Shown in pieces: positions 3,810-23,892 of a DNA stretch of 32,167 bases. How positions within the stretch are numbered: the stretch's first letter is position 1; each line of letters opens with the position of its first letter. Where the stretch lies: the NCBI GenBank assembly GCA_964510275.1, contig CAZEBE010000001.1:1-32167 (forward strand). The letters run 5' to 3'. The notes below the pieces were generated by a model that was not told the origin of the DNA, searched no databases, and saw only the letters and a list, made by a program, of their open reading frames with translations. The DNA comes from an uncultured Gammaproteobacteria bacterium (GTDB lineage Bacteria; Patescibacteriota; Patescibacteriia; Patescibacteriales; UBA12465). The translations under genes were made by a program, and so were the position numbers.

Positions 3810-3813
3810 ATAA

Positions 3814-5763: not shown

Positions 5764-5769
5764 ATTAGA

Positions 5770-5778: not shown

Positions 5779-5785
5779 CAGATTA

Positions 5786-9054: not shown

Positions 9055-9060
9055 AAACTA

Positions 9061-9100
9061 AAAAAGACTTACTAAATTTTTTACTAGTAAGTCTTTTTTT
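9061..9100. terminator. Bidirectional rho-independent terminator (clpP / surface operon)
   Basis: Perfect 14-bp stem AAAAAGACTTACTA (9061-9074) / TAGTAAGTCTTTTT (9085-9098) with a 10-nt loop. A and T runs sit on both sides, between the convergent clpP (stop 9054) and the 336-aa gene (stop 9113). Confidence 0.75.
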
Positions 9101-9112
9101 AATTAAGGGATC

Positions 9113-10123
9113 TTATTTTATAATCAAGGTTTTAATCATTAAATGAAATAGGGTTACCCCATCAGTGTCATTTGTTAGAGGAGAACAAGAAAAATTATAA
9201 ATTTTAGAAAAATCTTTATTAAAAATATAGGCAGCCAACTCGTCTTGTGAATAAATACCCTGCCAACTATCACCTAAAACTTCTTCCCCTGGAGTTAAAC
9301 CAGAAAACTGTTCAGTAAACCAAGCCCGAGGACTAATTTTACCAGGATTATCTTGATAGGTAACTTGAATAAAAGCCTTATCAGAGTTAACAAAAATAAT
9401 TGTATTATTAATATCACTTCTGGTTATTTCCCAAAATGAAGGGTAAATAACCGTTGTTTTGTCATCAATTTTATAACTTAACATTTGCGAAGTGGTCGTT
9501 GCTTTCATGTTGGCAGACAAGGGGTCGTAACCACTTTTAAGTTCCGCTAAATCTAAATAACCATCAGCATCTGTATCGGCTTTATTTGGATCAGTGCCAG
9601 TTATTTTTTCTTCATCATCGGTTAAACCATCAGCATCAGAGTCGGTAGTGGAAACCGTTTTTGGTTCTAAAATAACAGGGGTTTCTTCAGGAAATAATTC
9701 CGAAGAAGTAGCGGCAGTATTCGTTGATGTGGCAATTAGTGGCGTCTCGGTAGCAATTGTTTGTGGAGGCAATAAAACCTCTTCTGTTTTAGAAGTAATT
9801 ACTTCAGGGGCCGTTACCACCTGATTATTATTAGTACCTAGAGCGGGTTCTTTTAATAATGGTTTTATAAAATAAGAATAGCCAAAATAGAAAAGAAGAA
9901 TAATTAAAATAAAACCGCCACCAATAATAAGCAATCCAACTTTTTGATGATTTACAGCACTAGGGTTATTTAAAGACGAGTTATTTTTAACAGCGGTACC
10001 ACTAGAAAAAGTCTGGCCAGAAAAACGATGTGCTCCTGGCATATTGTGAGTAACAAAATCTTTATTAACCTGATCGGTTGTGTCGTTAATTGAAGTAGGT
10101 TTTTTTTTAGAACTATTAAACAT
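9113..10123 (-). CDS. Single-pass membrane protein with two TSP3-like Ca-binding repeats and a C-terminal globular domain
   Basis: 336 aa. The S/T/N-rich N-terminal tail contains HNMPGAHRF and is followed by a TM helix (VGLLIIGGGFILIILLFYFGYSYFI). A T/P/E-rich linker leads to DSDADGLTDDEEKITGTDPNKADTDADGYLDLAELKSGYDPL (aa 161-202), then about 130 aa of mixed sequence. This is the last gene of the operon. Confidence 0.75.
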   Translation of the reverse strand: MFNSSKKKPTSINDTTDQVNKDFVTHNMPGAHRFSGQTFSSGTAVKNNSSLNNPSAVNHQKVGLLIIGGGFILIILLFYFGYSYFIKPLLKEPALGTNNNQVVTAPEVITSKTEEVLLPPQTIATETPLIATSTNTAATSSELFPEETPVILEPKTVSTTDSDADGLTDDEEKITGTDPNKADTDADGYLDLAELKSGYDPLSANMKATTTSQMLSYKIDDKTTVIYPSFWEITRSDINNTIIFVNSDKAFIQVTYQDNPGKISPRAWFTEQFSGLTPGEEVLGDSWQGIYSQDELAAYIFNKDFSKIYNFSCSPLTNDTDGVTLFHLMIKTLIIK

Positions 10124-10313
10124 AAATCATTAAAAAAATAATCAGACTGACTAAAATAAGCAATCCGCCAGTGAGCCAACTAAAAACTCGGACATCAGCA
10201 GATTCTTGCCCCCGAGGCATAACGTGAAGATTTAAAAAAACCTTTCGCCCTGATTTTTTAGTAGAAAAAATACTACTAGTTTTAGTTCTGTTAATATCTA
10301 AATTTTTATTCAT
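10116..10313 (-). CDS. Small single-pass membrane protein (65 aa), hypothetical
   Basis: A basic N-terminal tail (KTSSIFSTKKSGRK) and an LHVMPRGQ motif precede one C-terminal TM helix (WLTGGLLILVSLIIFLMIYV). Its stop overlaps the next start by 8 nt (ATGTTTAA). There is no homology evidence, so the call rests on position and architecture. Confidence 0.45.
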   Translation of the reverse strand: MNKNLDINRTKTSSIFSTKKSGRKVFLNLHVMPRGQESADVRVFSWLTGGLLILVSLIIFLMIYV

Positions 10314-10333
10314 ACTAATAAAGAGACTAGCTA

Positions 10334-11110
10334 CTAATTTACAGCATCAATTAACTTACCGGTTCCTAGTGGATTATAACCTCCTTTAACCTCTGAGCCA
10401 TCATCATAACTATCGCCATCGGTATCAATTTTATTAGGATCGGTTCTATAAATTTTTACTTCATCATAATCAGGTAGAGTATCATCGTCAGTATCAACTT
10501 TACCTGGGTTGGTATTGTAAATTTTTACTTCATCAGCATCGGACAATCCGTCACCATCAGTATCGGTCATGATAACATTTGTTCCTAAAACATTTTCTTC
10601 TTCATCAGTTAAACCATCGCCATCGGTATCAACTAAATTACTTACCGGAGGGGTAGTTGTTGCCAAAGGAGTTGAAGTTACGACCGTTATTTCTTGGCTA
10701 ACAGGAATAACTGGTTCTACCGGCTCTGTGACAGTCACCACCGCTTCTTGGTTGGTTGTAACAACAGCCGTTGTCTTAGTTTCAATTACTTCAGCTGGAG
10801 CCTGGTTAGCAATAAATTTGATGTAAACTAGATAACCCAAACTAGCTAACAAAATTATAAATAAAATTATTAAACCAATTTTTAAAATTTTACTCTTAGA
10901 GGGACTAGCTGCGCCATCACTAGCCGACAAACCAGCTTTTTGAGTTTCAATTTCCGTGGGAGCTGGCGAGCTAACAGAATTAGCTGGGCTTTGATTGTAA
11001 TAGCCGGAAAAACTTTTAGCCTCCGTCACCGGCTTATCAGTTTCAGCAAAAATGTCGTCAACCGACGGTGTTGTTGGAGCTGATTGATTTGCTTGTAAAT
11101 CATTAAACAT
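10334..11110 (-). CDS. Single-pass membrane protein with four TSP3-like Ca-binding repeats
   Basis: 258 aa. A low-complexity tail of about 75 aa is followed by a TM helix (ILKIGLIILFIILLASLGYLVYIKFI) and a T/V/P-rich linker. Four repeats of 22-23 aa of the form DTDGDGLxDxxE...P..(V/I) occupy aa 161-251. Confidence 0.8.
   Translation of the reverse strand: MFNDLQANQSAPTTPSVDDIFAETDKPVTEAKSFSGYYNQSPANSVSSPAPTEIETQKAGLSASDGAASPSKSKILKIGLIILFIILLASLGYLVYIKFIANQAPAEVIETKTTAVVTTNQEAVVTVTEPVEPVIPVSQEITVVTSTPLATTTPPVSNLVDTDGDGLTDEEENVLGTNVIMTDTDGDGLSDADEVKIYNTNPGKVDTDDDTLPDYDEVKIYRTDPNKIDTDGDSYDDGSEVKGGYNPLGTGKLIDAVN
10358..10630 (-). repeat. Coding tandem repeat: 4 x ~23-aa thrombospondin-type-3-like (DxDxDGxxDxxE) units
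   Basis: The four units are DTDGDGLTDEEENVLGTNVIMT, DTDGDGLSDADEVKIYNTNPGKV, DTDDDTLPDYDEVKIYRTDPNKI and DTDGDSYDDGSEVKGGYNPLGTG. Confidence 0.8.
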
Positions 11111-11120
11111 AAATTTTTAT

Positions 11121-11390
11121 TTATTTTTTTATACGATAAATATATATACCATTTTTTTCATTAACCACTTCCGCCTCCTGAGAAGGACTGATTAAAAGTT
11201 TTATTTTTTCTTCTTCTGTCATTTCTCGGGCAGTATTTATTTCTGATATTACTTCTGATTCGTCATCATTGCTTAAAGGTTTAGTTGTCGAATCGTTTTT
11301 CAAACTAACAAAAACAATGATAAAAATAATAATTATCAAAACAATTGAAAGGGCGATGATAATTTTTTTTCTATTACTTAATTGTATCAT
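11121..11390 (-). CDS. Small N-terminally anchored membrane protein (89 aa), hypothetical
   Basis: N-terminal TM helix (KIIIALSIVLIIIIFIIVFVSL) followed by an acidic tail of about 60 aa. It lies 27 nt after the 1048-aa gene and 10 nt before the next gene. Confidence 0.55.
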   Translation of the reverse strand: MIQLSNRKKIIIALSIVLIIIIFIIVFVSLKNDSTTKPLSNDDESEVISEINTAREMTEEEKIKLLISPSQEAEVVNEKNGIYIYRIKK

Positions 11391-11417
11391 ATAAAAAGAT
11401 TAAATTTAAATTAACAC

Positions 11418-14400
11418 CTACTTAAATATTTCTGCCGTTGAAAAAGAGTAGCGACAATAGATGGTTTTAGCATCTTCAACACCGCTTGTTTCATTGGCGG
11501 CCCAAATTTGATTATATGGTAAAGAATTACCCCTTACCGGCCCCTTGTTACCCAAAGACTGAGCCGTTGGCCAAGCATCATCATTATAATCGTTTAAATT
11601 CCAACCTGTTAAATTTATATAATTCTTTTCTTCAGTACAACGCCAATTATTTGTTGAGTCTGTATTCATTGAAAATGTTTTAGAACCTGTTTTATTCTTA
11701 CAACCATAAACATTTAAAGTGGCCGACAAACCGTGTAAATTATTAGAAGCTCCAGGATCATCATCAGCTTGAATAGCAAAGACGTTAACGCCCTTTTGCA
11801 AAGTAACATTAAATTTTTGAATTTTAGTCCAGTCATGCCCACTAGCAACCTCAACCTCATTAAAATAGGTTAAATGCTTATTGTCAGCAGACACTTGAAC
11901 ATCAGCCCCTGATAAACAGCAGGAACCGTTGACGCACTCTTCATCTTCAGAACAGTCACCACAAGAGCCACCGCAACCATCATCACCGCAAATATTAACC
12001 TCACAACTAGGAACACAAACACAAGCACCACAATCAGAGCTGCAATTTTTACAAGTTTCCATCTCCACTAAAGAACCCTGAGGATTTATAATTTTATTTT
12101 GACAATAACCATCGCCACAATAACCACCACCTTCAACAGCTGATTTAAAGACACAGCTATTACTATTTAAAATAGGATAAGGCGATTTAACGTTTAAACC
12201 AGTAGTACAAGCATACTGTATAGCTGGATTTGTAGAAACTGCTGTAGTTGAAGCCCAAACACCATCGGCACCATCACAAGATTCCATTCCGTTATTATAA
12301 AGTCCGCCCTGCCCTTCAGAATTTGGTATCTGTTTCACGCCATCACCACAAAAAGTATTAACCTTTAAAGCAAAACTTTTTTCAGTGAGCGATCCATATT
12401 CATTAGCAACCGTTATTTTAACAATTGAACTAGTAGCAATCGACCCCTTAATAGTGTCTGCTTTTAAATAAACATCTTCGGCTGATGAACTTTTATCAAC
12501 ATAAAGATTGTTAATACTACTTACAGAATAAGACAAATTATAATTACCACTTTTCTGCTTACCCAAGAAACAGGAATTTCCAGAAATTGGATAAGAAGCT
12601 CCCAGGCGAGCCGTTGTATCACATTGAAAATCCAACAAAGGCTTCTCCATTTTTATGGTTATATTTACCATCACTGAAGAAGTAATATTGTCAGCGGTGG
12701 CGGTAATGAGCAAAGGAATAACAACATCTTGTTTTATTTCTACAGAGTCAGGAATTCTAAAAGAAAAATCAATCTTGCTTTTGTTCAAGCCAACCGAAGT
12801 TTCTGTTGCTTTTGCTACCGCTTCTTTTATTAAAGAAGAAAAATTAGAATTAGAAGAGGTAACTTTAAAAGATGGTTTTGAATTACTACCCTCAACAATA
12901 AAACTATATTTTAACGGAATAATTGGATCAACAAAATAAGTAATATCTTCAGCTTCTATACGAGGTTTGCCCGCTTCACTGATATTTAAAGTTAATTTGG
13001 TGGTTGTCGCTGCCCCACGACTATCAGTTAAAACCAAGTTCATATCATACAAACCCGGCTTTCCAGCCTTAGGAGCATAAATTCTTTTTTGATTAGGATC
13101 GCCAGTATCTTGTAAAACCGGGATTAAGCTATTACCATATCGCCAATCACCGCTAATCCAAGGAGCGGTAGATAAAGCATTTAAACTCCAAGAAACAAGA
13201 TCACCCTCAGCGTCTTTAATTTTTACATAACCGTTAAATTCTTTGCCAGATTCGCCGCCAGTATAAGAACTTTCTACATAAGGAGCTGTATTAGAATTAT
13301 AACCAGCACTGTTATTTACCGAGCACATATGGGTACTAATTTTTTCATCCGCAGTATCATAACCCAGAAGACCAGTTTCAAAAACAGAACAAAGTGAGTA
13401 ATTAACCCCGTTTTTAGTAGCGGTGTAATTAAAAGCATAACTTCCAGCCGGTAACGACAGGTTAGAATTTACAAAAGATTTAGTTTTATCATTCCAGCAA
13501 GTAACTGGATCATGTCCGCTGCAAAAACCCAAAGAGTTAATCGGGTCGAGTAAAGTTTGTCCTAAACCAAGTTGAGGAGTTAAGGTTTCTTTCCAGCTAG
13601 GCCAGACCGATAAACTACTACCCAAAATATAAGTCCCGAATTGTAAACTAGGATAAGTACCATTTGCTTGTTTAAAATTTTCAATTGCTTTACCAAATTG
13701 ATTTAATTTTCCTAGACGATTAACATCGCGAGTTACTCGAGCTTTCAAACTGTCACAAAATAAATTTAAAGGACAATCACTATCAATTAAACAAGCTTTA
13801 ATGGTTGATGGTTGGCACTTGGTGTTAGAACAAGTATAATCTTTTGGGCAATCAGAGTCTGTCTGACAATTTAGTTTAGAAATAGAACAACGACCAGATT
13901 CAGTGAGATTGTTGTTAAATTTCCAATGAGAAACTAATTGTCCCAGAATATCCAGAGTCTTTTCCTCTGATTCTTGATTGTAAGAAATTAAATAAACATT
14001 GGTATATATTTTGGTAGAATTATTTCTAACTGAACATTGACCACTCCACTCTTTTCCACCTTCTACCCAACGGCACTTGTTCGCATTAACCATTGTCGAG
14101 CATTTTGAAGTAGAACAATATGGAGTATTTCCCGTACCATAAGAAATTGCACCAAAAAACTCTTCGGCATAAGTATTGGGATTTAAAAATAAATCTAAAT
14201 TACAATTAACCGCACCTGTTATTTTATCAACGGCTATTTTTACTTTACATTCCCGTCCTAAGGCGGCATCTGACAAGCTAAGTGGTTTATACCAATTACC
14301 CGAATCAATATTAGCCGCGTTTACAAAAACCGTTCGCCCATCGCGAATTGCTTCATAGCCGTCCACAATTAAACTTTGTGGTGAGCCTTTATACCCCTGA

Positions 14401-14564
14401 TTAGTATACCAAGTTTCAATATTATCATGATGAACATTAGGCAAAATACGAACAGCAATCGCGTCTGATTGACTGGCCGCTTCAACTTGATTTAAAAGAG
14501 CAAAAACAGCGCCAACTATTATCAGGGTGCTAATTTTTTTCCAATTAGTGGTTGTAACACGCAT
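11418..14564 (-). CDS. Giant secreted Cys-rich multidomain protein (1048 aa) with pilin-headgroup-like, Ig-like, CGDG Cys-repeat and jelly-roll lectin-like regions
   Basis: Sec-type signal peptide (MRVTTTNWKKISTLIIVGAVFALLNQVEA|AS) with no other TM helix. I count about 42 Cys by hand. Domain-like regions are listed under findings. Confidence 0.85.
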   Translation of the reverse strand: MRVTTTNWKKISTLIIVGAVFALLNQVEAASQSDAIAVRILPNVHHDNIETWYTNQGYKGSPQSLIVDGYEAIRDGRTVFVNAANIDSGNWYKPLSLSDAALGRECKVKIAVDKITGAVNCNLDLFLNPNTYAEEFFGAISYGTGNTPYCSTSKCSTMVNANKCRWVEGGKEWSGQCSVRNNSTKIYTNVYLISYNQESEEKTLDILGQLVSHWKFNNNLTESGRCSISKLNCQTDSDCPKDYTCSNTKCQPSTIKACLIDSDCPLNLFCDSLKARVTRDVNRLGKLNQFGKAIENFKQANGTYPSLQFGTYILGSSLSVWPSWKETLTPQLGLGQTLLDPINSLGFCSGHDPVTCWNDKTKSFVNSNLSLPAGSYAFNYTATKNGVNYSLCSVFETGLLGYDTADEKISTHMCSVNNSAGYNSNTAPYVESSYTGGESGKEFNGYVKIKDAEGDLVSWSLNALSTAPWISGDWRYGNSLIPVLQDTGDPNQKRIYAPKAGKPGLYDMNLVLTDSRGAATTTKLTLNISEAGKPRIEAEDITYFVDPIIPLKYSFIVEGSNSKPSFKVTSSNSNFSSLIKEAVAKATETSVGLNKSKIDFSFRIPDSVEIKQDVVIPLLITATADNITSSVMVNITIKMEKPLLDFQCDTTARLGASYPISGNSCFLGKQKSGNYNLSYSVSSINNLYVDKSSSAEDVYLKADTIKGSIATSSIVKITVANEYGSLTEKSFALKVNTFCGDGVKQIPNSEGQGGLYNNGMESCDGADGVWASTTAVSTNPAIQYACTTGLNVKSPYPILNSNSCVFKSAVEGGGYCGDGYCQNKIINPQGSLVEMETCKNCSSDCGACVCVPSCEVNICGDDGCGGSCGDCSEDEECVNGSCCLSGADVQVSADNKHLTYFNEVEVASGHDWTKIQKFNVTLQKGVNVFAIQADDDPGASNNLHGLSATLNVYGCKNKTGSKTFSMNTDSTNNWRCTEEKNYINLTGWNLNDYNDDAWPTAQSLGNKGPVRGNSLPYNQIWAANETSGVEDAKTIYCRYSFSTAEIFK
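13371..13742 (-). other. Type IV pilin / pseudopilin headgroup-like domain inside the 1048-aa protein (aa ~275-398)
   Basis: ARVTRDVNRLGKLNQFGKAIENFKQANGTYPS ... LLDPINS ... YAFNYTATKNGVNYSLCSVFE follows the pilin pattern RD..R..dL..i..Ale.y....G.YP ... l.DP.N ... Y.Y......y.L.a.lE. It lacks the class III signal peptide and the hydrophobic alpha1-N helix. Confidence 0.5.
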
Positions 14565-14606
14565 GGCTTTATATCTTAAAAAATTAATTAATATATTTTA
14601 ATAATC

Positions 14607-17600
14607 TTACTCCTGCAAAACAGCGGCTGTAATAGTAGTAGAAGCTTCATCCGAGGTTTCACTAATATTTCCACTCTCATCAATCGCCGCTAAATAAAAA
14701 TAATGTTTACCAACGCGATAATCACTTTGGTTAAAAGTTAAGCTAGTGGCTTTATTTGGAGAATCAACTGAATCAGAGGCTCTTTTTCCGTCTAAAAATC
14801 CGTGAAATAAACGATAATAAAGAGCGTCATCAGTGTTAGCTTTCCATTTTATAGCTAAAGTACTGCTTGTTGTTTCAATACTTAAACCCGTTGGTTTTGC
14901 TGGAGCGATAGTGTCCGTTGGGGTAATTTCGGCCCCGCCAGACAAAGGACTTTCGGCTTTTTTATTAGTCAAGGATGAAACTTTAAAATAATATTTTTTA
15001 TCTTTAATTAAACTGGTTATCTTTAAAGAACAGTTATACTTATCAAGAGATTTAGAACAAACCGCCGAATCATTAACTGAAACCGGAATAATTTCCGAAC
15101 CAGCCTGACCGCCGCTTAATCCATAGTAAATTTTAAATGATTCTAAAGTTGTTGGGTTTACAATTGGAGCATACCAGCTTAAAAGTACTGAATCGCCAGT
15201 GCCGGTGTTTCTTACTTCAATGATTTCTCCTGATTGAGGAATTGCTTCTCGGAAAAAATAGGATTCTTTAAGAACATTCCAAATACAAGTACCACCAATT
15301 CCACAAACAGCCCCCTGTTCGCTACAAGGATTGCCTGAATTACTACAAACCAAATTTCCTGAAGAACCTAAAATTAAAGCTGGGTCAGCCACTGCTGGTA
15401 AATCGTCGACTGTTCCTTTGTTTCCCGCGTCACGACAATAATAAAATTTATAATTATAATTTATACAACCAGAAATAGCATTACCTAAACTATCGACACA
15501 CTTGTCAGACCAGGGACTCCATTTTCCATTTGTTACCATTGGCCAAGGGTTGGCACAAAGAAACACGTAAGCATTGGAGGTACCGCTAAGACCATTACCA
15601 CGGAAACTAAAATTACTAAAGCCAGACATGTTAACCGAAGCAGTTATTTTTGTGCTCTTATCAGTAACACCAGAAACCGCACCGACTACAATTTCATTAT
15701 TTTTTAAACCAGAAATATTCATTTTATCAACAACCGAAGAGTCGTCTATTTTAAAGTTCCAATTCCAGCCATAGCCAGAAACTGGTTGTATTAATTGGCC
15801 ATCAGCACTATAAGCCCAGGCCGAAACGGCTCGGTCACTATCAGCTTTTGTATCAAATAATTTACTATTAGCAACATCATCGGTGACGTCGTTGTCGGCT
15901 GTATTAATTAAGAAAGAATCTGGCTCCAAAACAACATCATCTAAAACACAAACACCACCACCTTCACTCTCAACGGCTAAAGTTGTAAAACCAAACGTAT
16001 AAGAATTTTTAAATTTAATGCCGTTAAATTCTGGGTTGGTAATATGACCAAATATGGTCGAACCGTTCATTCCAACTTTTTTAAGGCTGGTTACCCCATA
16101 ATTACTATCTAAATTTTCATCACCCTTTACAACTACAAAATAATTGGTTTGAGCATCTAATAATTTTTGAGGACTAAGATAAATTATTGTTGAAGTAGCC
16201 TTATTTGTATAACCAGTTTTTGTTTCAGTTGTTGCTGGCAACACACAATATAGTTTATCCGCTGAAGGAGTGGCGGCAATTGCATTATTATTTACCGAGC
16301 CACTAAATAAATACTTAAAGTTATTTAGTATTGTTTGATATACTCTAGCGATAAAATTAATTTTCTTTGGTCTGAAATCATTTAGAGACAGCGTTGTTCC
16401 ATCAGGACAAACATCGGTGTTATAAGTTTTTTCTTCTAACAGTAAAATATTGGAAGATAGCGTAGCAAGATTCATCTCTTGATCAAACTTAATCTTAATC
16501 TGTGCGTTACGACAAACTTTCTGGGCATTATTTTTAGGGTCAGTAGAAACAACCTTTGGTCTTCCGTAACAACAGGTATCATCACCGCAGCCTTGACCAC
16601 CACCACATTGAGAATCTAAAGAGCAGCCACAGAATAAACCACGGCCATTTCCAGAACAACTTCCTTTATCTTTTAGACAAGTTAAATCTCCGTTTTTTTC
16701 ACCTGGTTTACAACAGCAAAAACCACAATCTTTCAGATCTGGACCTTCTCCCTTATCAGACAAACAACTATAAGGGTTTCCACAAAGACTAGTATTACAA
16801 ATAGTAGCTTCATCGGAAGCACAACTACTATTAGGTGAAACATCTAAAGAGCCACATTGATTTTGACAATTATTAAAGCCAATGATTTGTCCAGTGGTGC
16901 TAGCGACATTTCCGCACTCTTTAGTGTCCTGATCACAATTATAATAAGCACAATATTTTACTCCTTCCAAATTAAACTTCTCTGTTCCATCAGTACACTT
17001 ATCATTTTTTTCATCATAACAACAATTATTTTGAGCGGAGCATTTGGTTTTGTCTTTACCAATTAAATCACAGATTGTTTTAGAATTAGCTGCACAGTCT
17101 GTAACACAGGTAGAGGTGGCTAAAAATTGTCCAGTAGAGGTAGCTGTCTGATTACAAATAGCTTTATTACCAGCATCACAATCATAATAGGCACATTTTC
17201 CGTTAAGTAAATTACCATTACCTCCCTGACAAACTCCTTTAGCCTCGTCAAAACAACATTGATTTTTATGGTCGCCACAACTAGTTTCATCTAAAGCAGC
17301 ACAATCAACACAAACACCACCCGATTTAGAGGTGTCACAAATTTTTCCACTAGTGGTGTCGCAGTTACAAGCAGCATCATGATCTGCTTGAGTAGTACCA
17401 ACCGCTGAACAACCAGAACAAGAACCATAGCCAGAACCATCATTGGAAGTGTCGCTACCACAAGTACCAGCACATTTAAGCGGTGCACAACAATCTCTAG
17501 CGTCCTTACCAATTTCACAACAACATTCACAAGTGTCTTTTGGTGCCTCTAAACAAGAAAATTTATTTCCATTTTTCCCGCAAGAAGCGTTGCCACCACA

Positions 17601-20600
17601 AATCTTTTTTGATTCACAGATACCATAATCATCATTAGAGTTGGAATCTTCATTACAAGCAAACTCAGGTGCACAAGGATCACATAAAACTGGAATTCTA
17701 TCAACACAATAACCACTGCCGATATTTATATAATTATTCGGACAAGAAGTGTTTACTTTAAGCTGTTTAACAAAATAAGTTTTGCCACTGGTTTTATCAT
17801 CATAAGCACGACAACTGGTAACTCCTTTGTAATTAATAACTACATCTTTGTTATCAATTTTAGAAGTCAAAGAATAAGAAACTTCTTTTTCTAAAATGCA
17901 TTTTTTAGTCTGACAAACATCTTTAGTTGCATTATAAGTACAATTCTTATCATCTTCTTTACAATACCCTAAAGCTCCACAGGCCGAAGTAGCGCTGCCG
18001 CAATCAGCCGTAATTCTTGGGGAAACAGCATTAAAAGGTGAACATTTTCCTGGAGAGTTTGGACAAAATTGACCAGTCTGACAACCATTATAAAAAGTTG
18101 CCATTGCTAAACAGCTATCAAATTTATTATCCGAATTGCCGGATAAAATAGTATTAAATTTAGATTCATAAACTGAATTAGGAACATCAAAATAGCAAGA
18201 TAATAAAGACGCAGCGCAAGAACCGGTTTTATAAGTATTGTTTGGACAGCAAACAGGACTAGAAGCCGAACAATCGGAATTGTTAATACATTTACCAACG
18301 ATAAAGTTGACTTCGTTTCCTGATTCTCCACTCTTCATAACCCTAACTGGACCAGTTATAGCTGAAACGCCATCACTGTTTACCGGCACAACGGTTTCTA
18401 GTTTATCAGCTAAATCGTCTTTAGTTATCTTTGAAGAAGTGCTGATTTCTCGATTAAAAACAACTGAAGCATAACTATCAGCCTTACCAAAATATTCCCC
18501 CCATAAAGTAACTTTATCACCAACTTGTCCACGGACAGGATCGATTTTACAAATACTAGTTTTTAAATTTTGCGTTGGATCAAATTTAAAATTATTATTT
18601 GGAAAAAGTAAATCTGTGTTTATAACAACCTCTCCTAAATTAACTTTAATTTTATAATTTTTATTAACTAATCCTTCTGGGACTTTAACAATAATCTGAC
18701 TGTCGCTCCAAGCGGAATTAGTACAAACTTCCGGAAAATCATAGGAAGCTTCTTTGTCGTCAAACAACACTTGACGACTACCACGAGCACTGCCAAAACC
18801 TTTGCCGGAAATAGTAACATACTGCCCAGTGTTTCCCGATGTGGGATAAAAAGAAGAAATGTAAGGGCCTGCTTCAGCTTCCCTTTCTTTTACAAACATC
18901 AAAGAATTACTTTTTTGATTGATACCAGCTAAAGATCTTTCTACAAAAGTTGTCGTTCTTCCAGGGATAATACTAGGAGCCAAAGTTTGCCCTGATAAAT
19001 TGTCAGTTGAAAAAACAGAATCAATTCCTTTGTAAGGATTATTATATTCTCCAAAGTAAGCAGTGCTATTTCTTAGATTAACCCCCTGATAACCAACTTT
19101 ATCCCCTAAAGCTCCTTTAGTAGGGTCAATCAAACAAAGACCGGGACGATAAATTTCGTTCTTAACAAAATCAGCTACTTTAGGGCCACTATCATTATTA
19201 GTGGTGTCAAAATTTTCTTCAAAATTACCCTCACGTTTAACCTTTATCGGTCCGGTGGCTGCCCCACTAGGAACCGCTACCGTTATTTGACGATCAGTCC
19301 AAGAACTAACACAATTAGCATTTAAAAGTTTGGGGAAATTAGCTAGCTGAGACTGTGACTCATTCGCCCCTAAAAAAGTAACTTGTCCGGTATTTAAAAC
19401 TTTAGTAACTGTAAAATCATCAATATACAAATCTGTTCCGGTTTTGGTGGAATTATAACCAACAGACAAACCAAGTTCAATCATTTTTTGTCCACTAGCA
19501 TTAAGCCACGTGTCCATTTCTGGAGTATATTTAAAAGTATAAGAATACAAAGTCCAATCAGAAGTTGAGCTGATTGGTATTGAGGTTAAATTAAGAGCTC
19601 CATAACATTTCTTTTGATAAGGGGTGTTCATGCAACAAGTATTTGCCTGTTCGGAACAAGTTTTTCCCATACCGCAAGGATCTACTCCAGCAGCAGGGGT
19701 TGGGACTACTTTTGAGCCATCCCAAGTATAACCAGATTTTAAAGCAGCATAATAGTTATAAGCCACACACTGAGAACCCCAACCTAAATTAGAAGCAATT
19801 TGAACAGCAACATTAGCCGTTGTTTTTCCTTTATAGTAGAACTGAATAGAATAGGTTTCACCAATTTTAAAGTTAAGCGGTGCTAAATTATAGGTCAATT
19901 TAGCCCACATTACATTGTGAGAATTTCCCCAAACTAAAATTTCACCTTGTCTGTAAACAGCAGGGCCGCTTCGGTGAGCATCGTCTGTTCCTGAAAAATT
20001 ACAAGTGTTATCAGTCGCTTTCCAGGTACAATTACTTAAATCATCACAAGTCGCTTTATTACAAATACCTGGATAATCTTGATTGGCGTCTTGATGAATT
20101 CTAACGCTCTGCTTCCCTGATCTAAATTCATTTTGAACAATGCCAACACTAGAGTGTTTTTGTGAGGCAATTGTCCAATCGGTTGGCACTTTACCAATAG
20201 CCCCTCTTTCAAAATCAATATTTGTTAAGAAACTTTCAAAAACACTAGAGCTAGTTCCAAAATTATAACCGTAAATGGTTATTAGATTATTAGCACCACC
20301 GTTTGGTGTTGCGGTATCACACTTAGCACCACCTAAACAATCAGAGTCTAAATTACAACCACGGTTTTTATCATTAGCACAAAAACCTCCAGCCGGGCTA
20401 ATGCCAGTAATAACTGGAGCGCCAACACAAGTGCAGGAATCTGGATTACATTTTAAATAAGGTCCACACAAATTATTATCAACAGAACATTTTCCTCCAT
20501 CAGGATTAGCGTTACAAGATTCTCCTAAACTAGATTTTGGTTTACACAAACAACTATTTTCGTCACAAGTATAATCATCACCGCATAAATCATTGTCAGC

Positions 20601-21140
20601 CTGACATTTAGCAACAACCGTGTCACCATCACAACTTGTTTTCTCATCAACATCTGGCAAACAAGTTGAACCTAAGCAGGGGCCCCAAGTATCAACGTTA
20701 CAAGTTTTAGCACCACCACAACCACAGGAAATACTAGCACCATTAGTACAGCTGTTAGAGCTTGGATCCCCGCCAGTAACACCCAAAACTTTATTGATAA
20801 CAAAATAAACAACCCCCCAAGCTGACAAAATTATAAGCAAACCAATTACACCGTTTTTTATAATTTTTTTAGCTTGATCGATTTTATCTTCGCTACCACC
20901 AGAGGTCATATATACAAAACCGCCCCATAAAATTAAACAGACTGCTAACAAGCCCAAAAAACCCATTAAAAGGTTAATGATATTTTTAATTATCGTAACT
21001 GGACTATTAGCCCCCAAATTCAAAGGATTACTACTGGCCGAATCAATACCCGTGTCTACAGCCAAAGACTGAGAAGCAAACAAAAAGACCGATCCAATAA
21101 TTAAAGTTAAGATTAAAAAACCTTTGAGTTTATTAGACAT
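14607..21140 (-). CDS. Giant (2177 aa) membrane-anchored Cys-rich adhesin-like protein with N-terminal VirB2/TrbC-like pilin hairpin
   Basis: An uninterrupted 6.5-kb ORF in an AT-rich genome. In order it contains a signal peptide (...FASQSLA|VD), a two-helix hairpin module and six-Cys knots. Next come four IPT/TIG-like domains (PVITGISPAGG..., PGLCLIDPTKG..., GPYISSFYPTSGNTGQYVTISGKGFG..., ICKIDPVRGQVGDKVTLWGEYFG...) and a Cys-rich region of about 580 aa. It ends with Big_5/SbsA-Ig-like (PKVVSTDPKNNAQKV...IKIKFDQEMN), Big_2-like and two fn3-like domains (aa ~1967-2165). I count about 127 Cys by hand. Confidence 0.9.
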   Translation of the reverse strand: MSNKLKGFLILTLIIGSVFLFASQSLAVDTGIDSASSNPLNLGANSPVTIIKNIINLLMGFLGLLAVCLILWGGFVYMTSGGSEDKIDQAKKIIKNGVIGLLIILSAWGVVYFVINKVLGVTGGDPSSNSCTNGASISCGCGGAKTCNVDTWGPCLGSTCLPDVDEKTSCDGDTVVAKCQADNDLCGDDYTCDENSCLCKPKSSLGESCNANPDGGKCSVDNNLCGPYLKCNPDSCTCVGAPVITGISPAGGFCANDKNRGCNLDSDCLGGAKCDTATPNGGANNLITIYGYNFGTSSSVFESFLTNIDFERGAIGKVPTDWTIASQKHSSVGIVQNEFRSGKQSVRIHQDANQDYPGICNKATCDDLSNCTWKATDNTCNFSGTDDAHRSGPAVYRQGEILVWGNSHNVMWAKLTYNLAPLNFKIGETYSIQFYYKGKTTANVAVQIASNLGWGSQCVAYNYYAALKSGYTWDGSKVVPTPAAGVDPCGMGKTCSEQANTCCMNTPYQKKCYGALNLTSIPISSTSDWTLYSYTFKYTPEMDTWLNASGQKMIELGLSVGYNSTKTGTDLYIDDFTVTKVLNTGQVTFLGANESQSQLANFPKLLNANCVSSWTDRQITVAVPSGAATGPIKVKREGNFEENFDTTNNDSGPKVADFVKNEIYRPGLCLIDPTKGALGDKVGYQGVNLRNSTAYFGEYNNPYKGIDSVFSTDNLSGQTLAPSIIPGRTTTFVERSLAGINQKSNSLMFVKEREAEAGPYISSFYPTSGNTGQYVTISGKGFGSARGSRQVLFDDKEASYDFPEVCTNSAWSDSQIIVKVPEGLVNKNYKIKVNLGEVVINTDLLFPNNNFKFDPTQNLKTSICKIDPVRGQVGDKVTLWGEYFGKADSYASVVFNREISTSSKITKDDLADKLETVVPVNSDGVSAITGPVRVMKSGESGNEVNFIVGKCINNSDCSASSPVCCPNNTYKTGSCAASLLSCYFDVPNSVYESKFNTILSGNSDNKFDSCLAMATFYNGCQTGQFCPNSPGKCSPFNAVSPRITADCGSATSACGALGYCKEDDKNCTYNATKDVCQTKKCILEKEVSYSLTSKIDNKDVVINYKGVTSCRAYDDKTSGKTYFVKQLKVNTSCPNNYINIGSGYCVDRIPVLCDPCAPEFACNEDSNSNDDYGICESKKICGGNASCGKNGNKFSCLEAPKDTCECCCEIGKDARDCCAPLKCAGTCGSDTSNDGSGYGSCSGCSAVGTTQADHDAACNCDTTSGKICDTSKSGGVCVDCAALDETSCGDHKNQCCFDEAKGVCQGGNGNLLNGKCAYYDCDAGNKAICNQTATSTGQFLATSTCVTDCAANSKTICDLIGKDKTKCSAQNNCCYDEKNDKCTDGTEKFNLEGVKYCAYYNCDQDTKECGNVASTTGQIIGFNNCQNQCGSLDVSPNSSCASDEATICNTSLCGNPYSCLSDKGEGPDLKDCGFCCCKPGEKNGDLTCLKDKGSCSGNGRGLFCGCSLDSQCGGGQGCGDDTCCYGRPKVVSTDPKNNAQKVCRNAQIKIKFDQEMNLATLSSNILLLEEKTYNTDVCPDGTTLSLNDFRPKKINFIARVYQTILNNFKYLFSGSVNNNAIAATPSADKLYCVLPATTETKTGYTNKATSTIIYLSPQKLLDAQTNYFVVVKGDENLDSNYGVTSLKKVGMNGSTIFGHITNPEFNGIKFKNSYTFGFTTLAVESEGGGVCVLDDVVLEPDSFLINTADNDVTDDVANSKLFDTKADSDRAVSAWAYSADGQLIQPVSGYGWNWNFKIDDSSVVDKMNISGLKNNEIVVGAVSGVTDKSTKITASVNMSGFSNFSFRGNGLSGTSNAYVFLCANPWPMVTNGKWSPWSDKCVDSLGNAISGCINYNYKFYYCRDAGNKGTVDDLPAVADPALILGSSGNLVCSNSGNPCSEQGAVCGIGGTCIWNVLKESYFFREAIPQSGEIIEVRNTGTGDSVLLSWYAPIVNPTTLESFKIYYGLSGGQAGSEIIPVSVNDSAVCSKSLDKYNCSLKITSLIKDKKYYFKVSSLTNKKAESPLSGGAEITPTDTIAPAKPTGLSIETTSSTLAIKWKANTDDALYYRLFHGFLDGKRASDSVDSPNKATSLTFNQSDYRVGKHYFYLAAIDESGNISETSDEASTTITAAVLQE
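16854..17279 (-). repeat. Coding tandem duplication: two 81-aa-period Cys modules (CC[FY]DE ... CAYY[DN]CD ... [ST]TGQ ... C-x3-C)
   Basis: Copy 1 is aa 1288-1349: CGDHKNQCCFDEAKGVCQGGNGNLLNGKCAYYDCDAGNKAICNQTATSTGQFLATSTCVTDC. Copy 2 is aa 1367-1429: CSAQNNCCYDEKNDKCTDGTEKFNLEGVKYCAYYNCDQDTKECGNVASTTGQIIGFNNCQNQC. The CAYY Cys residues are at aa 1316 and 1397. Confidence 0.75.
20427..20633 (-). repeat. Coding tandem duplication: two 39-aa six-Cys modules with identical spacing C-x8-C-x6-C-x5-C-x4-C-x-C
   Basis: Module 1 is aa 170-199 (CDGDTVVAKCQADNDLCGDDYTCDENSCLC). Module 2 is aa 209-238 (CNANPDGGKCSVDNNLCGPYLKCNPDSCTC). Confidence 0.75.
20787..21005 (-). other. VirB2/TrbC-like 'T4SS pilin' helical hairpin module of the 2177-aa protein (aa 46-118)
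   Basis: The module reads SPVTIIKNIINLLMGFLGLLAVCLILWGGFVYMTSGGSEDKIDQAKKIIKNGVIGLLIILSAWGVVYFVINKV. Two hydrophobic helices flank a short Lys-rich loop, after a cleavable signal peptide. This fits the GGF.y.TSgG....AK....viG pattern I recall for the Pfam T4SS_pilin family that is abundant in CPR bacteria. Confidence 0.65.
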
Positions 21141-21154
21141 ACTTATATCAAGAA

Positions 21155-23848
21155 TTAATTAACACAATTACCGTCAGAATTTAAGGAATTTGTTCCCGTG
21201 CCAGAACAACAAGAAGGGTTCTCTTCGCTTAAATTAACACAACCAGGACCAATACTAGGTTTAAAACAATTTTGATAAATGTTTTTTACACCAGAACCAA
21301 TTTGAGAAACATAGGTAACTGCTTCAAAAAAATCTGAATGTAAAATTTTAATCGAGGTGTAATCGGGCTCACCATCAGGAGTGCCCTGTTCTTTATTTTC
21401 ACTCTCCATCCAATAACCTAAAGGCTTATCCGTTAAACTGCGCAAATTAACTAATTTATGTTCTACGCTGGTCAAATCATTTTTCATTTCCAAACTACCA
21501 GTCCTTAAAGAGCTATTCATCATCAAATCATTAAAATCAATTATCACCGGACTAGTTAATCTAACACCAACTTCTTTTAGATAAGGCGAAGTTAAAGATA
21601 TCGTCGGTGGTATTAAATTAATCTCGTTACTAACCCAAAAAGAAAATTCAAAACCATCGCGTTTGGTTAAATCATTATCACCTTCAATAAAATAGGGGTA
21701 AACCGCTGTTATTGGGCCTTCCGCTTGATTATCGCGATTACCGTCTAAAGAGTTAAAAGCTAAATCAACAACACCATCTAATTGCAAAGAATTAGCTGCA
21801 GGATAATTCATTCCTTTAGCAACATCGCGACAAACGCCAGCGACACACTCAGAGTAAGGAGCAAGACTACTACAATCAGTCACTGATGAACAAGTTTTTA
21901 ATTTAGCTGCGTTTATTTTGAGAGCTAAATTACTACCAGCTGGTAAACAATACATTTTTTCACCACAACTATTTACTCCACATTCCTTGTCAGAAATAAA
22001 TTCTAAAGTGCGGTAAGCGTTAGTTAAAGAAAATTTACCAGAAACATAATCACCAACACAAACCGTCGCTTCGCAATTATAAGACAAACAATCACTGGCC
22101 GCACTACAAGCTTCTCCGTTTGTTTTAGCGGTTCTACTAGCGTTTACTAAACGAATATAGGATTTGAGTTCATCAGAACTGCCGGACAAAACCATAGGAT
22201 TAACTGCTTCATTAAAAGTAACTTGAACAACTGAATTCATTGGCTTATCCTTCAAGCCTTTTATTTCATAAAGGTCACTCTTGTCAGTTCCACCAGAAAA
22301 TTTAGTAATTGTCAGTCCGTTTCCGGTTGAAGAAATATTTAAACTATTACCCGAAACTCCTGTCTGTTTTGAAAATAAATTTAAGGTGTTGCCGTTACCA
22401 AAAACATTAATATTATAATTACTACTTAAAGCTGCTTTCATGTTAGCAGTCATAAGTTCGCTTGAACAAACAGCGGGAACTAAAATTTCGTTACCCGCAC
22501 CAGATTTAGAGCCAACAAAAATATAAGTATCAGAACCAATGGTTAAAGTTTGAGCAGGCGCTGCAGGCTTAATTCTTACCGTCCAAAGATTTCCTTGATT
22601 TACAACAGCTGGAAGTGTAACTGAAAAATAACCATCAAAATTTGCTACCCCATCAATAATATCACTAGCTCCCAATAAATTATCGCCACTAAACAATTTT
22701 AATTTGCCATTGTCTATCTGAAGTTTAAAGTAAGTAACAGTTCCTGAATAATTAGGATTTATTATTAACTCAATTTTTTCAGAAGTTCCAATCTTAACAA
22801 CACTAATTATACTGGCAGCTGTTTTTATTTTAGGGCAATCAGAAACCACTATTTGTGCTTTAGCCGCTTTAGCTTCAGAGCCAACACTAAAAGTGTCGGC
22901 CAAATTATCTATTGGCGGAAAAATATTTCCTAATAAAACTTGAGGGGGGGTTAAATCCAACTTGTCATTAGTTTCAAAAGTCCATTCTAAAAAATCAGAA
23001 GAACAGGTTTTAAATAAAGCCTCTCCACCAGCTTTTTTTAATTCATTGGTTAAGCGAACCGCATATTCAACATTACCACTAGCACTTCCTAAATAACCAA
23101 CTGGCATTAGAACTAAAGTTTTATTTCCAGCTGGCACTGATACTTCAATGTTAGTAATGTTATCAGCACAACCAGCGGAGACACAGGAGTTGCCATCGGC
23201 TGTTTTATAAACCTGAATATTTGTCGGATTAAGTAAATTACAATTTGGCGTATTGTCGCAAGCACAGGCGTTTTTAGTGTTTCTATTTATACAAACCGTA
23301 TCCAATTGAAAAGCCTCTTTTGAAGTAACTAAGATGCTTGAATTACGAGCCACATCTTTAGTTCCGGGAGCTGGAAAAACAGATTCAATTGAACAAGAAC
23401 CTAAAGTTCCTAAACTTAAATTTTTAAAATTAGCTGTACTAGCCGGCAAAGAAAGGGCTGTTGAATTTTTATCAGTGAAAAGAGATAAGACATAAGAAGA
23501 AATTCCCCAGGCTGATAAAATAATAACCACTCCGATAACCGCATTTTTAAGAACCTGCTTAGCTTTCTTTATTTTATCCTCACTACCACCAGAAGTTGTC
23601 CACAAGAAACCGCCATACATAATAGTAATTACCAAAATAAGACCAAGCAAACTAAAGACCACCTGAATTATTCTTATAATTATAGTGACTGGAGAAGAAG
23701 CGCTTAAAGATAAATTATCTTCTACAACAGCCGTTCCCAAATCAGTGGCTTCAATGGCTAAGCTACTTTTAGCTAGCAAAAAAGTGGCCAAAAATACCAC
23801 AAGAGGTAGGCCAATTTTTTTCAAAAAAGAGGTTGGACATTTTTTCAT
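21155..23848 (-). CDS. Large (897 aa) membrane-anchored Cys-containing surface protein with N-terminal VirB2/TrbC-like pilin hairpin
   Basis: Signal peptide (...LLAKSSLA|IEA), then the hairpin module, then Big_5/SbsA-Ig-like repeats (SIESVFPAPGTKDVARNSSILVTS...LEWTFETN; VVQVTFNEAVNPMVL...; PPTISLTSPYLKEVGVRLTSPVIIDFNDLM) interrupted by C-x5-C-x4..8-C-x4-C knots. I count about 27 Cys by hand. This is the first gene of the operon, 14 nt upstream of the 2177-aa gene. Confidence 0.88.
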   Translation of the reverse strand: MKKCPTSFLKKIGLPLVVFLATFLLAKSSLAIEATDLGTAVVEDNLSLSASSPVTIIIRIIQVVFSLLGLILVITIMYGGFLWTTSGGSEDKIKKAKQVLKNAVIGVVIILSAWGISSYVLSLFTDKNSTALSLPASTANFKNLSLGTLGSCSIESVFPAPGTKDVARNSSILVTSKEAFQLDTVCINRNTKNACACDNTPNCNLLNPTNIQVYKTADGNSCVSAGCADNITNIEVSVPAGNKTLVLMPVGYLGSASGNVEYAVRLTNELKKAGGEALFKTCSSDFLEWTFETNDKLDLTPPQVLLGNIFPPIDNLADTFSVGSEAKAAKAQIVVSDCPKIKTAASIISVVKIGTSEKIELIINPNYSGTVTYFKLQIDNGKLKLFSGDNLLGASDIIDGVANFDGYFSVTLPAVVNQGNLWTVRIKPAAPAQTLTIGSDTYIFVGSKSGAGNEILVPAVCSSELMTANMKAALSSNYNINVFGNGNTLNLFSKQTGVSGNSLNISSTGNGLTITKFSGGTDKSDLYEIKGLKDKPMNSVVQVTFNEAVNPMVLSGSSDELKSYIRLVNASRTAKTNGEACSAASDCLSYNCEATVCVGDYVSGKFSLTNAYRTLEFISDKECGVNSCGEKMYCLPAGSNLALKINAAKLKTCSSVTDCSSLAPYSECVAGVCRDVAKGMNYPAANSLQLDGVVDLAFNSLDGNRDNQAEGPITAVYPYFIEGDNDLTKRDGFEFSFWVSNEINLIPPTISLTSPYLKEVGVRLTSPVIIDFNDLMMNSSLRTGSLEMKNDLTSVEHKLVNLRSLTDKPLGYWMESENKEQGTPDGEPDYTSIKILHSDFFEAVTYVSQIGSGVKNIYQNCFKPSIGPGCVNLSEENPSCCSGTGTNSLNSDGNCVN
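23477..23695 (-). other. VirB2/TrbC-like 'T4SS pilin' helical hairpin module of the 897-aa protein (aa 52-124)
   Basis: The module reads SPVTIIIRIIQVVFSLLGLILVITIMYGGFLWTTSGGSEDKIKKAKQVLKNAVIGVVIILSAWGISSYVLSLF. By hand alignment it is 40/73 identical, without gaps, to the module of the 2177-aa protein. Confidence 0.65.
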
Positions 23849-23873: not shown

Positions 23874-23892
23874 TGTTATAATAATTATAACA
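23874..23892. promoter_or_regulatory. 19-bp perfect palindrome carrying back-to-back extended -10 elements (divergent promoters for rel and the surface operon)
   Basis: TGTTATAAT-A-ATTATAACA reads TGnTATAAT on the plus strand (23874-23882, 34 nt before the rel ATG at 23917). It reads the same on the minus strand (23892-23884, 35 nt before the 897-aa gene ATG at 23848). Confidence 0.45.

Follow-up and report, generated by a model that had tools for sequence, protein, structure and literature searches.

A conserved seven-gene block of hairpin-anchored giant proteins and calcium-repeat membrane proteins in Falkowbacteria, a candidate cell-surface attachment complex of ABY1 Patescibacteria

The 32,167-nt stretch of contig CAZEBE010000001.1 (GenBank assembly GCA_964510275.1) analyzed here, the whole of which is called the window, contains a block of seven genes for large cysteine-rich proteins and small membrane proteins. 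We consider the block to be the Falkowbacteria version of one vertically inherited locus of the class ABY1 Patescibacteria, which would encode a membrane-anchored cell-surface complex and likely serves to attach to, or to recognize, a partner that bears glycans; the probability of this reading is about 0.5. The genes were numbered g1-g7 in the order of transcription, and the following coordinates are from the open reading frame (ORF) list.

21155-23848, minus strand: g1, 897 residues
14607-21140, minus strand: g2, 2177 residues
11418-14564, minus strand: g3, 1048 residues
11121-11390, minus strand: g4, 89 residues
10334-11110, minus strand: g5, 258 residues
10116-10313, minus strand: g6, 65 residues
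9113-10123, minus strand: g7, 336 residues

The gaps between g1 and g6 are 14, 42, 27, 10 and 20 nt in order, and g6 overlaps g7 by 8 nt. The block occupies 14,736 of the 32,167 nt (46%) of the window; clpP (8473-9054) is located on one side and rel on the other. The original prediction, which had been made from the sequence of the window, described the same seven co-directional ORFs, with the same sizes and spacing, between these two core genes, and all of this agrees with the ORF list.

Both g1 and g2 start with a Sec signal peptide, which is followed by one VirB2-like hairpin. Behind the hairpin, g1 is a chain of immunoglobulin (Ig)-like β-sandwich domains of the Big_5 type, with 26 conserved cysteines, whereas g2 contains Cys-rich modules, IPT/TIG repeats, Big_5 and two fn3 domains. 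The Pfam pilin family of type IV secretion systems (T4SS_pilin, PF18895, curated cut-off 26.6) matched g1 with an E-value of 5e-13 (49.4 bits) and g2 with an E-value of 4e-13 (49.6 bits); Big_5 was found on both proteins, TIG and fn3 on g2. Below its cut-off, the NCBIfam model Mbov_0395 (pilin-like conjugal transfer protein) also matched g1 and g2.

23486-23698, minus strand: pilin hairpin of g1 (residues 51-121), two hydrophobic helices connected by the loop TSGGSEDKIKKAK, found by Pfam, hydropathy and AlphaFold2 (AF2)
20796-21008, minus strand: pilin hairpin of g2 (residues 45-115), found by T4SS_pilin

Hydropathy analysis revealed a signal peptide and two helices in each protein. In the AF2 model of g1 (pLDDT 83), the two helices span residues 53-84 and 90-125, and a chain of β-sandwich domains follows. 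The pilin hairpin that had been predicted on two of the giants is thus present on g1 and g2. The same prediction named several other families to look for; TIG, Big_5, fn3 and TSP3 were all found, whereas CBM_4_9 and Big_2 were not detected in the block by Pfam. The likeness between g1 and g2 is limited to the signal peptide and the hairpin, and the two hairpins are 47% identical.

We identified 70 full-length homologues of g1, which share 26-70% identity with it and are nearly all about 860-930 residues in size; those with a name belong to Candidatus (Ca.) Falkowbacteria. T4SS_pilin and Big_5 both matched in 41 of 41 g1 orthologues, and TrbC matched weakly in six. The g1 hairpin shows 50% identity against a mean of 44%, and two ectodomain segments (residues 601-650 and 851-897) reach 63%. 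The g2 hairpin is among the best-conserved segments of g2 (56% identity against a mean of 38%). Compared with the giants of other lineages, g2 shows 43-47% identity in the hairpin and only 22-30% in the ectodomain. In size, g1 (897 residues) and g2 (2177 residues), with their ectodomains behind the second helix, do not match a mature VirB2 pilin of ~70-130 residues. As they are not small and are not encoded in a T4SS gene cluster, g1 and g2 are probably variants that use the pilin module, not pilins proper.

A Foldseek search with the g1 model returned SbsC, Sap, EA1 and other Ig-chain proteins as the best matches in the PDB, with E-values of 3e-6 to 1e-3. Owing to TM-scores of ~0.1, the likeness of the g1 model to S-layer proteins is one of architecture only. 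The whole-model searches were swamped by tandem Ig domains and gave no assignment for the unknown domains of g1 or the N-terminal module of g3. With g2, the PDB profile search produced generic TIG and fn3 matches only. In Falkowbacteria loci, the g2 orthologues vary between 1464 and 2396 residues, and one variable segment of g2 is the following.

19371-20243, minus strand: lineage-specific insertion of g2 (residues ~300-590), a β-rich module present in ~12% of the orthologues

The insertion has no PDB sequence match. A copy with 36% identity is located on the C-terminal side of one 3821-residue orthologue (P0334), so the module has changed place within this family of proteins. P0334 also carries an LVIVD module, which is missing from the window proteins.

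Different from g1 and g2, g3 has no membrane anchor according to its hydropathy; it has a Sec signal peptide of type I. From the N- to the C-terminus, it contains one β domain, Cys knots, one helix-plus-sheet domain, three to four Ig-like domains, one Cys-rich region and one variable β-sandwich. In the AF2 model (pLDDT 75), the N-terminal β domain is followed by a helix (residues 273-301) and strands, the Ig-like domains (428-740) and the C-terminal β-sandwich (875-1048). The Foldseek matches of this model, SbsB included, are dominated by the tandem Ig domains, and Pfam found no domain on g3. More than 385 homologues of g3 were found; their N-terminal parts are 63-82% conserved, and their C-termini are variable, with He_PIG, Beta_helix, FISUMP, CarboxypepD_reg or PKD domains.

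13377-14498, minus strand: conserved module of g3 (residues ~23-396), which in other lineages is fused directly behind the g2-like region of one giant
11421-11942, minus strand: C-terminal β-sandwich of g3 (residues ~875-1048), lectin-like, present in 25-49% of the orthologues

The fusion of this module to g2-like giants is the strongest evidence for g3 as a tethered partner. BLASTP aligned residues ~23-396 of g3 to residues 2051-2351 of P0311, 2308-2559 of P0322 and 3129-3309 of P0289, and parts of the same region to P0236, P0265, P0284 and P0285. In P0311, P0322 and P0289, the g3-like module sits just after the segment that matches residues ~1450-1950 of g2. In Falkowbacteria, the distal part of the g2-g3 giant became an independent gene, whose product carries a Sec signal peptide of its own. 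Since the g3 module belongs to the g2 polypeptide in other lineages, the products of g2 and g3 very probably still associate (Rosetta-stone relation). The original prediction of g3 as an anchorless, tethered partner is strengthened by this covalent linkage. An assembly frameshift was rejected as the cause of the g2/g3 split, because a signal peptide is encoded by g3 itself and about 80 species show the same split. Some fused giants carry modules that are missing from the window proteins, namely Glyco_hydro_39 (P0322, L087 5875-15243) and Laminin_G_3 (P0289).

The labels that had been given to the head and the tip of g3 fared less well than its secretion by Sec and its lack of an anchor. For the lectin-like C-terminus, the PDB profile search matched the fungal lectins 6t0q/6kbj (E 8e-4), and NCBIfam matched a rhamnosidase segment (E 2e-4). 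For the pilin-headgroup-like domain, the family T2SSG (PF08334) matched in 5 of 24 orthologous segments, all below the threshold (best E 0.0035); the profile search of the PDB gave no significant sequence match to this segment. In residues ~273-420 of g3, as in GspG and the type IV pilin head, a sheet follows a long amphipathic helix (KARVTRDVNRLGKL...NGTYP). Different from these proteins, g3 has neither a class-III signal peptide nor the hydrophobic α1-N helix, and the domain is embedded in a large Sec-exported protein. The g3 segment of residues 101-185 (14010-14264) is an insertion limited to the close relatives of the window (~2% occupancy). Apart from it, the g2 insertion and the g3 C-terminus, the regions of the block are occupied in more than 90% of the orthologues. 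Variable tips, such as the g3 C-terminus and the g2 insertion, would fit with ligand recognition.

The giants are very rich in cysteine. The motif C-x3-[ST]-[DQ]-C of the mini-knots noted earlier occurs seven times, against ~0.15 expected from shuffled sequences. Of 63 orthologues, at least 62 retain the two cysteines of any given motif. In at least 80% of the orthologues, 26 of 27 cysteines of g1 and 116 of 127 cysteines of g2 are conserved. The block proteins are acidic (pI 4-5), as are all of the ectodomains. None of the seven proteins contains an LPxTG motif (LP.[TSA]G) or another sortase signal, and their C-termini are hydrophilic; nor did motif scans of the seven proteins find a class-III prepilin motif or the GG.G.D motif of RTX proteins, and the window has no ABC/MFP genes. 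Pfam detected no SLH or CWB2 domain in the block proteins, and Pfam and NCBIfam detected no ATPase, enzyme or catalytic domain. The genes virB4, virB3/prgI, virB6 and trsD are all missing from the 32-kb window. These results bear out the earlier statement that the block has no ATPase, enzyme, sortase signal, S-layer homology domain or secretion-machine gene.

The four small proteins had been predicted to be bitopic, two of them with TSP3 repeats. In agreement with this, g4-g7 have one transmembrane segment each by hydropathy, and TSP3_bac (PF18884, cut-off 25) matched g5 (E 7e-14, 51.7 bits) and g7 (E 3e-6, 27.4 bits). The paralogues g5 and g7 share a cytoplasmic tail of 60-77 residues in front of the transmembrane segment. 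In g5, a Thr/Val/Pro-rich linker and external TSP3 Ca-binding repeats follow, and the N-terminus MFNDL...VDDIFAETDK is invariant in the orthologues. In g7, the tail contains IVHNMP, and the transmembrane segment is followed by one linker, two TSP3 repeats and a conserved C-terminal domain of ~130 residues; the TSP3 Asp positions are invariant in 48 orthologues. g4 consists of an N-terminal transmembrane segment and a small external tail, with conserved EK..L and VYKI motifs; in g6, the cytoplasmic tail is basic and contains LHxMP, and the transmembrane segment lies at the C-terminus. Pfam found no domain on g4 and g6. The cytoplasmic motifs extend to distant lineages, where VEDIF and PEDIF, or EVHTMPKKF and IVVIPDKF, were found; [VP][DE]DIF is kept in L086 and L087. 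These g5/g7 motifs are conserved across lineages in which FtsZ is only 55-62% identical to that of the window (L086 and L087), which implies that a conserved cytoplasmic partner exists for the tails of g5-g7. NCBIfam hints of DotG, IcmG/DotF and EssB on g4/g5 (E 0.015-0.08) were regarded as noise. Weak PDB profile matches on g1, g2, g7 and g3 residues 262-425 were also discarded; they comprise a sheath-protein motif (E 0.08), TIG/fn3, EF-hand/lanmodulin on the TSP3 repeats, PsbP on g7 (only at E 0.2) and a tail spike (E 0.055).

In a scan of one genome per species, g3 relatives were present in 202 species, and the best 80 of the 202 loci were compared using tblastn with the window proteins. 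Of these 80 loci, 46 have the full order rel / g1 g2 g3 g5 g7 / clpP secD; the others are truncated by contig ends and show no break in it. Three apparent violations of the order are cross-hits between paralogous segments. The genes are therefore syntenic, not scattered, in all informative loci. The median identities are 43% for g1, 39% for g2, 39% for g3, 37% for g5 and 31% for g7, compared to values of 74% (rel) and 82% (clpP). In L001 and L002, gene calls made independently recovered the same seven genes. Between g3 and g5, nearly all Falkowbacteria loci have a g4-like ORF of 80-145 residues with an N-terminal transmembrane segment, and most have a g6-like ORF of 61-73 residues with a C-terminal transmembrane segment at the position of g6. 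Many of the metagenome-assembled genome records of L003-L082 with this patescibacterial locus are titled 'uncultured Gammaproteobacteria bacterium', and single ones are titled Bacillota, Balneolaceae or Saccharimonadales; evidently, these titles are placeholder or mis-binned labels.

Outside Falkowbacteria, five loci were compared: P0289, L086, L087, L088 (Ca. Uhrbacteria, GCA_016222815.1) and L089. In the upstream part, the typical order is lepB-hisS-...-yqeY, one g1-like gene (630-850 residues) and one g2-like giant (1708-4654 residues). Downstream, there are one or two bitopic proteins of the g5 type, most of them with a TSP3 match, then one g7-like protein and ybeY-dagK-ftsA-ftsZ. In the four loci with a visible downstream flank, the reduced core adjoins ybeY; dagK was found in three and ftsA-ftsZ in four. 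As departures from this order, L087 has no dagK, L089 has rel upstream, has no g3 and ends before ftsA, and L088 is visible only from within the giant onward. A separate g3 gene was not called in four of the five loci, and the g3 module lies inside the giant where this was tested. Equivalents of g4 and g6 were not identified in these loci; Uhrbacteria L088 has a 108-residue gene at the g4 position. Orthologues of g7 are present in L086, L087, L088 and L089. Carbohydrate-related or extra modules of the other lineages include Glyco_hydro_39 (P0322), Laminin_G_3 (P0289) and CarboxypepD_reg with Big_7 (P0311). Judged by this gene content, the deeply conserved core appears to consist of only g1, g2, g5 and g7, four of the seven genes. 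The block had been proposed to be one coherent unit; this holds for the gene order in Falkowbacteria, whereas in deeper comparison it applies to these four genes only.

From the gene structure, domains, synteny, g2-g3 fusion and conservation patterns described above, we infer the topology, complex formation, Ca dependence and adhesion of the block proteins as follows. g1 and g2 would be exported by Sec, their signal peptides cleaved, and the proteins held in the membrane by the VirB2-type two-helix hairpin with its positively charged cytoplasmic loop. Anchoring of this kind would leave the long disulfide-rich Ig/TIG/fn3 ectodomains facing outward. g3 would be exported separately and dock onto g2, because it is the detached piece of a polypeptide that is single in sister lineages. 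g5 and g7, plus g4 and g6 in Falkowbacteria, would be bitopic proteins, whose external TSP3 Ca repeats on long linkers may brace or organize the giants, and the short conserved cytoplasmic motifs may tie the assembly to a cytoplasmic partner. The conserved stalks would bear exchangeable distal modules, which are lectin-like, He_PIG, β-helix, FISUMP, laminin-G or GH39 in nature. Owing to these exchangeable modules on conserved stalks, the block most likely serves to attach to, or to recognize, a partner surface that bears glycans, for example that of a host cell.

In Ca. Southlakia epibionticum, the one patescibacterium that has been studied genetically, epibiotic growth requires several adhesins with lectin domains, and also the type IV pili and a T4SS with small pilins, including one essential six-pilin array (PMC10633639). 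Like the Gram-positive surface adhesins PrgB and the sortase-anchored MSCRAMMs (SdrE and Bbp, both among the Foldseek hits of g1), the block giants combine long chains of Ig-like β-sandwich domains with a distal binding module. Different from them, the block uses an N-terminal membrane-hairpin anchor instead of LPxTG and sortase, and its Cys content is very high. The DxDxDG-type Ca repeats of g5 and g7 are shared with the Myxococcus proteins CglD (gliding adhesion lipoprotein) and MtsD (cell-cell cohesion), which gave the best partial NCBIfam hits (E 6e-9 and 3e-7). However, the scores are far below the family cut-offs, and g5 and g7 differ from large lipoproteins in being short and bitopic, with a cytoplasmic tail each; the repeats alone are in common.

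Several points weigh against attachment as the function of the block. Surface location, expression and binding are predictions for all members, and for a complex among g1, g5 and g7 the sole indication is synteny. The lectin and pseudopilin labels of g3 are weak, given their E-values. The locus has a fixed position beside housekeeping and division genes, and the length of g1 is conserved, so that the block resembles a structural component of the envelope rather than an adhesin that evolves fast. For a passive anchor, the hairpin is conserved more strongly than necessary; as a member of a pilin family, it may depend on a T4SS encoded elsewhere.

The last point leads to the first alternative, in which g1 and g2 are VirB2-type pilins that are extracted by VirB4/TrsD encoded elsewhere and built, together with small pilins, into a conjugative-type pilus or at its tip or base. 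They would then supply the adhesin function that the T4SSs of Patescibacteria appear to lack. We regard this as possible, though doubtful. Like the VirB2/TrbC pilins of Patescibacteria, the N-termini of g1 and g2 consist of a cleavable signal peptide and two hydrophobic helices with a short basic loop, and score above the family threshold, as do all g1 orthologues; the weak TrbC and sub-cut-off Mbov_0395 matches point in the same direction. The conservation of the hairpin clearly exceeds that of the ectodomain in g2 and across lineages, and less clearly in g1. The g1-g2 tandem pair also resembles the arrays of 2-11 pilin genes ('VirB2 arrays') reported in Patescibacteria (PMC12102498). In that survey, VirB2-like pilins, PF18895 included, were present in 1,948 VirB4-positive assemblies and near virB4 in only 1,135; the pilin genes are far from virB4 in about 40% of the assemblies, no PrgB-type adhesin was found, and large fusions are unmentioned (PMC12102498). 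PF18895 is extremely abundant in Patescibacteria (PMC12102498; bioRxiv 10.1101/2025.04.23.650224). Three block-carrying genomes, GW2011_GWF2_43_32, ADurb.Bin115 and HGW-Falkowbacteria-2, are listed as ABY1 and VirB4-positive in Table S1 of the survey (PMC12102498). In GWF2_43_32, VirB4/TrsD are genes 572-573, and the sole listed VirB2 (gene 711) is flagged as not near VirB4 and is not a block gene; the block pilin genes of this genome are cut off by a contig end, and their position is unplaced. A T4SS is thus available in trans, and what would tie it to the block is membership of the hairpin family alone; the earlier description of the block as self-contained may be too strong.

Other observations are difficult to reconcile with such a pilus. 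About 88 loci were examined, and none of them has a T4SS gene within 10 kb; the rel-clpP interval of Falkowbacteria is filled by the block. Known VirB2/TrbC pilins are ~100-180 residues in size and encoded in or near virB4 clusters, whereas g1 and g2 carry ectodomains of 780 and 2060 residues, which would be hard to fit in a helical VirB2 lattice, and are encoded away from T4SS genes, with dedicated and conserved bitopic TSP3 partners. The hairpin family is also very wide. Among 1.84 billion 50%-identity representatives, 34,858 clusters match the g2 hairpin at E<=1e-3; at E<=1e-10, there are still 4,613. Three architectures occur among the top 150 matches: small single pilins (110-180 residues), tandem multi-hairpin proteins (2-8 hairpins) and proteins with a single N-terminal hairpin and an ectodomain; the last, with ectodomains of 570-4650 residues, account for 36 of the 150. 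The family of ~35,000 clusters includes multi-hairpin proteins in loci without VirB4, so the hairpin is used well beyond T4SS clusters. This also qualifies the earlier claim that the block matches no named system. None of the giants was assigned to a characterized system; however, the anchor is a bona fide member of PF18895, and giants with an N-terminal hairpin recur among its closest relatives. The tandem proteins contain two to eight VirB2-like hairpins in single polypeptides (P0191-P0198; P0198, with 820 residues, has eight matched stretches), and their genes (L083 8001-10463, L084 230-2692) adjoin further pilin-domain and PKD-repeat proteins, with no VirB4 nearby. In the literature consulted, covalently concatenated pilins are not mentioned, and neither this operon nor giant fusions of PF18895 nor the fusion-fission of g2/g3 is described.

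An unlikely alternative is a structural envelope layer, in which the giants and the TSP3 proteins form a Ca-stabilized lattice or wall scaffold similar to an S-layer, perhaps positioned by the divisome. SbsC, SbsB, Sap and EA1, the top Foldseek hits of g1 and g3, share with the block giants the multi-domain Ig-like architecture, the acidic nature and possibly Ca dependence. The fixed position between housekeeping genes, close upstream of ftsA-ftsZ in four loci of other lineages, and the constant length of g1 (about 880-910 residues) over 35-70% identity would also suit such a layer, and the conserved cytoplasmic tails of g5-g7 could bind a cytoskeletal protein. However, at TM-scores of ~0.1, the structural matches reflect Ig-like chains only, and the ftsAZ neighborhood may be mere inherited gene order. 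Different from S-layer proteins, the block giants have no SLH or CWB2 domain, are membrane-anchored and have a very high Cys content. The variable lectin, GH39 and β-helix tips point to ligand recognition rather than to a scaffold.

A more speculative idea, to which we give little credence, is that the hairpins do not serve a T4SS at all and nucleate a T4SS-independent oligomer, a membrane 'stub' derived from a conjugative pilus. Together with the bitopic TSP3 proteins, this would be an unrecognized envelope-spanning organelle of ABY1, which [VP][DE]DIF of g5 and VHxMP of g6/g7 couple to FtsA or the divisome a few genes away, linking host attachment to cell division. The PilN peptide INLLP binds the FtsA-like protein PilM, and VHxMP of g6/g7 is reminiscent of INLLP. 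Least probable of all is a surface-tethered apparatus for capture or degradation of polysaccharides, used for nutrient acquisition from host or environmental glycans rather than for stable adhesion: the carbohydrate-related modules do change between lineages (Glyco_hydro_39, Laminin_G_3, CarboxypepD_reg with Big_7, the rhamnosidase- or lectin-like g3 C-terminus, and FISUMP with β-helix in g3 orthologues), but the window proteins contain no catalytic domain, one lineage only has a catalytic module, and the conserved core is non-enzymatic.

Patescibacteria account for much of the diversity among uncultured bacteria. Their cultivated members live in attachment to host cells; the contact molecules are known for a few Saccharibacteria only (type IV pili, a T4SS and a few adhesins). 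If the block encodes a surface attachment complex, it is a defined candidate contact apparatus for a class without a cultured member. In freshwater-specific protein clusters, the PF18895 hairpin is the dominant domain, but it has been discussed solely in the form of small T4SS pilins. A sizeable part of this family appears instead to serve as the membrane anchor of very large, disulfide-rich, multi-domain surface proteins. These giants come with fixed partners, the detachable g3 module and the bitopic TSP3 proteins, and the set is inherited at one chromosomal position across ABY1 lineages. The proposed attachment complex predicts association of g2 with g3, Ca dependence, glycan-binding tips and a cytoplasmic partner for the two short motifs. 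If the hairpins do depend on a T4SS, proteins of the g1/g2 type would be the adhesins that have so far been missing from the T4SS of Patescibacteria.

The block is bounded by two regulatory elements, both of which had been predicted.

23874-23892, both strands: divergent, overlapping extended -10 promoters within a 17-19 bp palindrome; TGTTATAAT on the minus strand reads toward g1 and TGTTATAAT on the plus strand toward rel
9060-9099, both strands: bidirectional intrinsic-terminator-like hairpin of 16 pairs with T-runs on both sides, common to the block and the convergent clpP

The palindrome TTATAATAATTATAA (23876-23890) is unique in the window, with 0 expected in shuffled sequences. As read from the sequence, it consists of one extended -10 box (TGnTATAAT) on each strand, with 1 bp between the two boxes. 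In nearly all orthologous loci, TGnTATAAT is located 5' of g1 together with its mirror, AATTATAnCA, which follows it. The rel and g1 promoters face each other, and each predicted start site lies in or past the -10 box of the other. Their spacing varies, being 1 bp in the window and about 10-25 bp elsewhere in the rel-g1 intergenic regions of L001-L079. This facing, conserved pair suggests that rel, a stringent-response gene, and the surface operon may mutually interfere. In most Falkowbacteria loci (L002, L012-L019, L030-L079), one element, AATTTAAAAG(C/T)TTTTT, often palindromic, is located between the promoter and the start of g1; the window does not have it, and neither do L003 and L005, the closest relatives of the window. 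The leaders of the block genes are A/T-rich, and no Shine-Dalgarno-like purine run was present in the 25 nt upstream of any of the seven start codons. The mechanical rel ORF, which starts from TTG at 23833, overlaps the start region of g1. As the Pfam domains and the conserved sequence start after ATG at 23917, this ATG (MTIDRIV...) is probably the true start, which gives a rel-g1 intergenic region of 68 nt.

The neighbors are all housekeeping genes: ftsZ, ftsA, prepilin peptidase, Wzy_C protein, secF, secD and clpP on the clpP side, and rel, hisS, lepB, queA, ruvB, DUF218 protein and AddB-like nuclease on the rel side. The GC content is flat across the block; because of this and of the syntenic, vertically inherited locus, a mobile element or island was rejected. 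An accessory role in type IV pili, considered due to pilD ~5 kb away, was also rejected, because clpP and secDF intervene and pilD is not nearby in other lineages. The prepilin peptidase gene (A24_N_bact / Peptidase_A24) is located directly downstream of the gene for a 661-residue Wzy_C (O-antigen-ligase-like) membrane protein, between secF and ftsA (3024-5799). The two genes are possibly a pilin-glycosylation pair; in L002, two glycosyltransferase genes lie between them.

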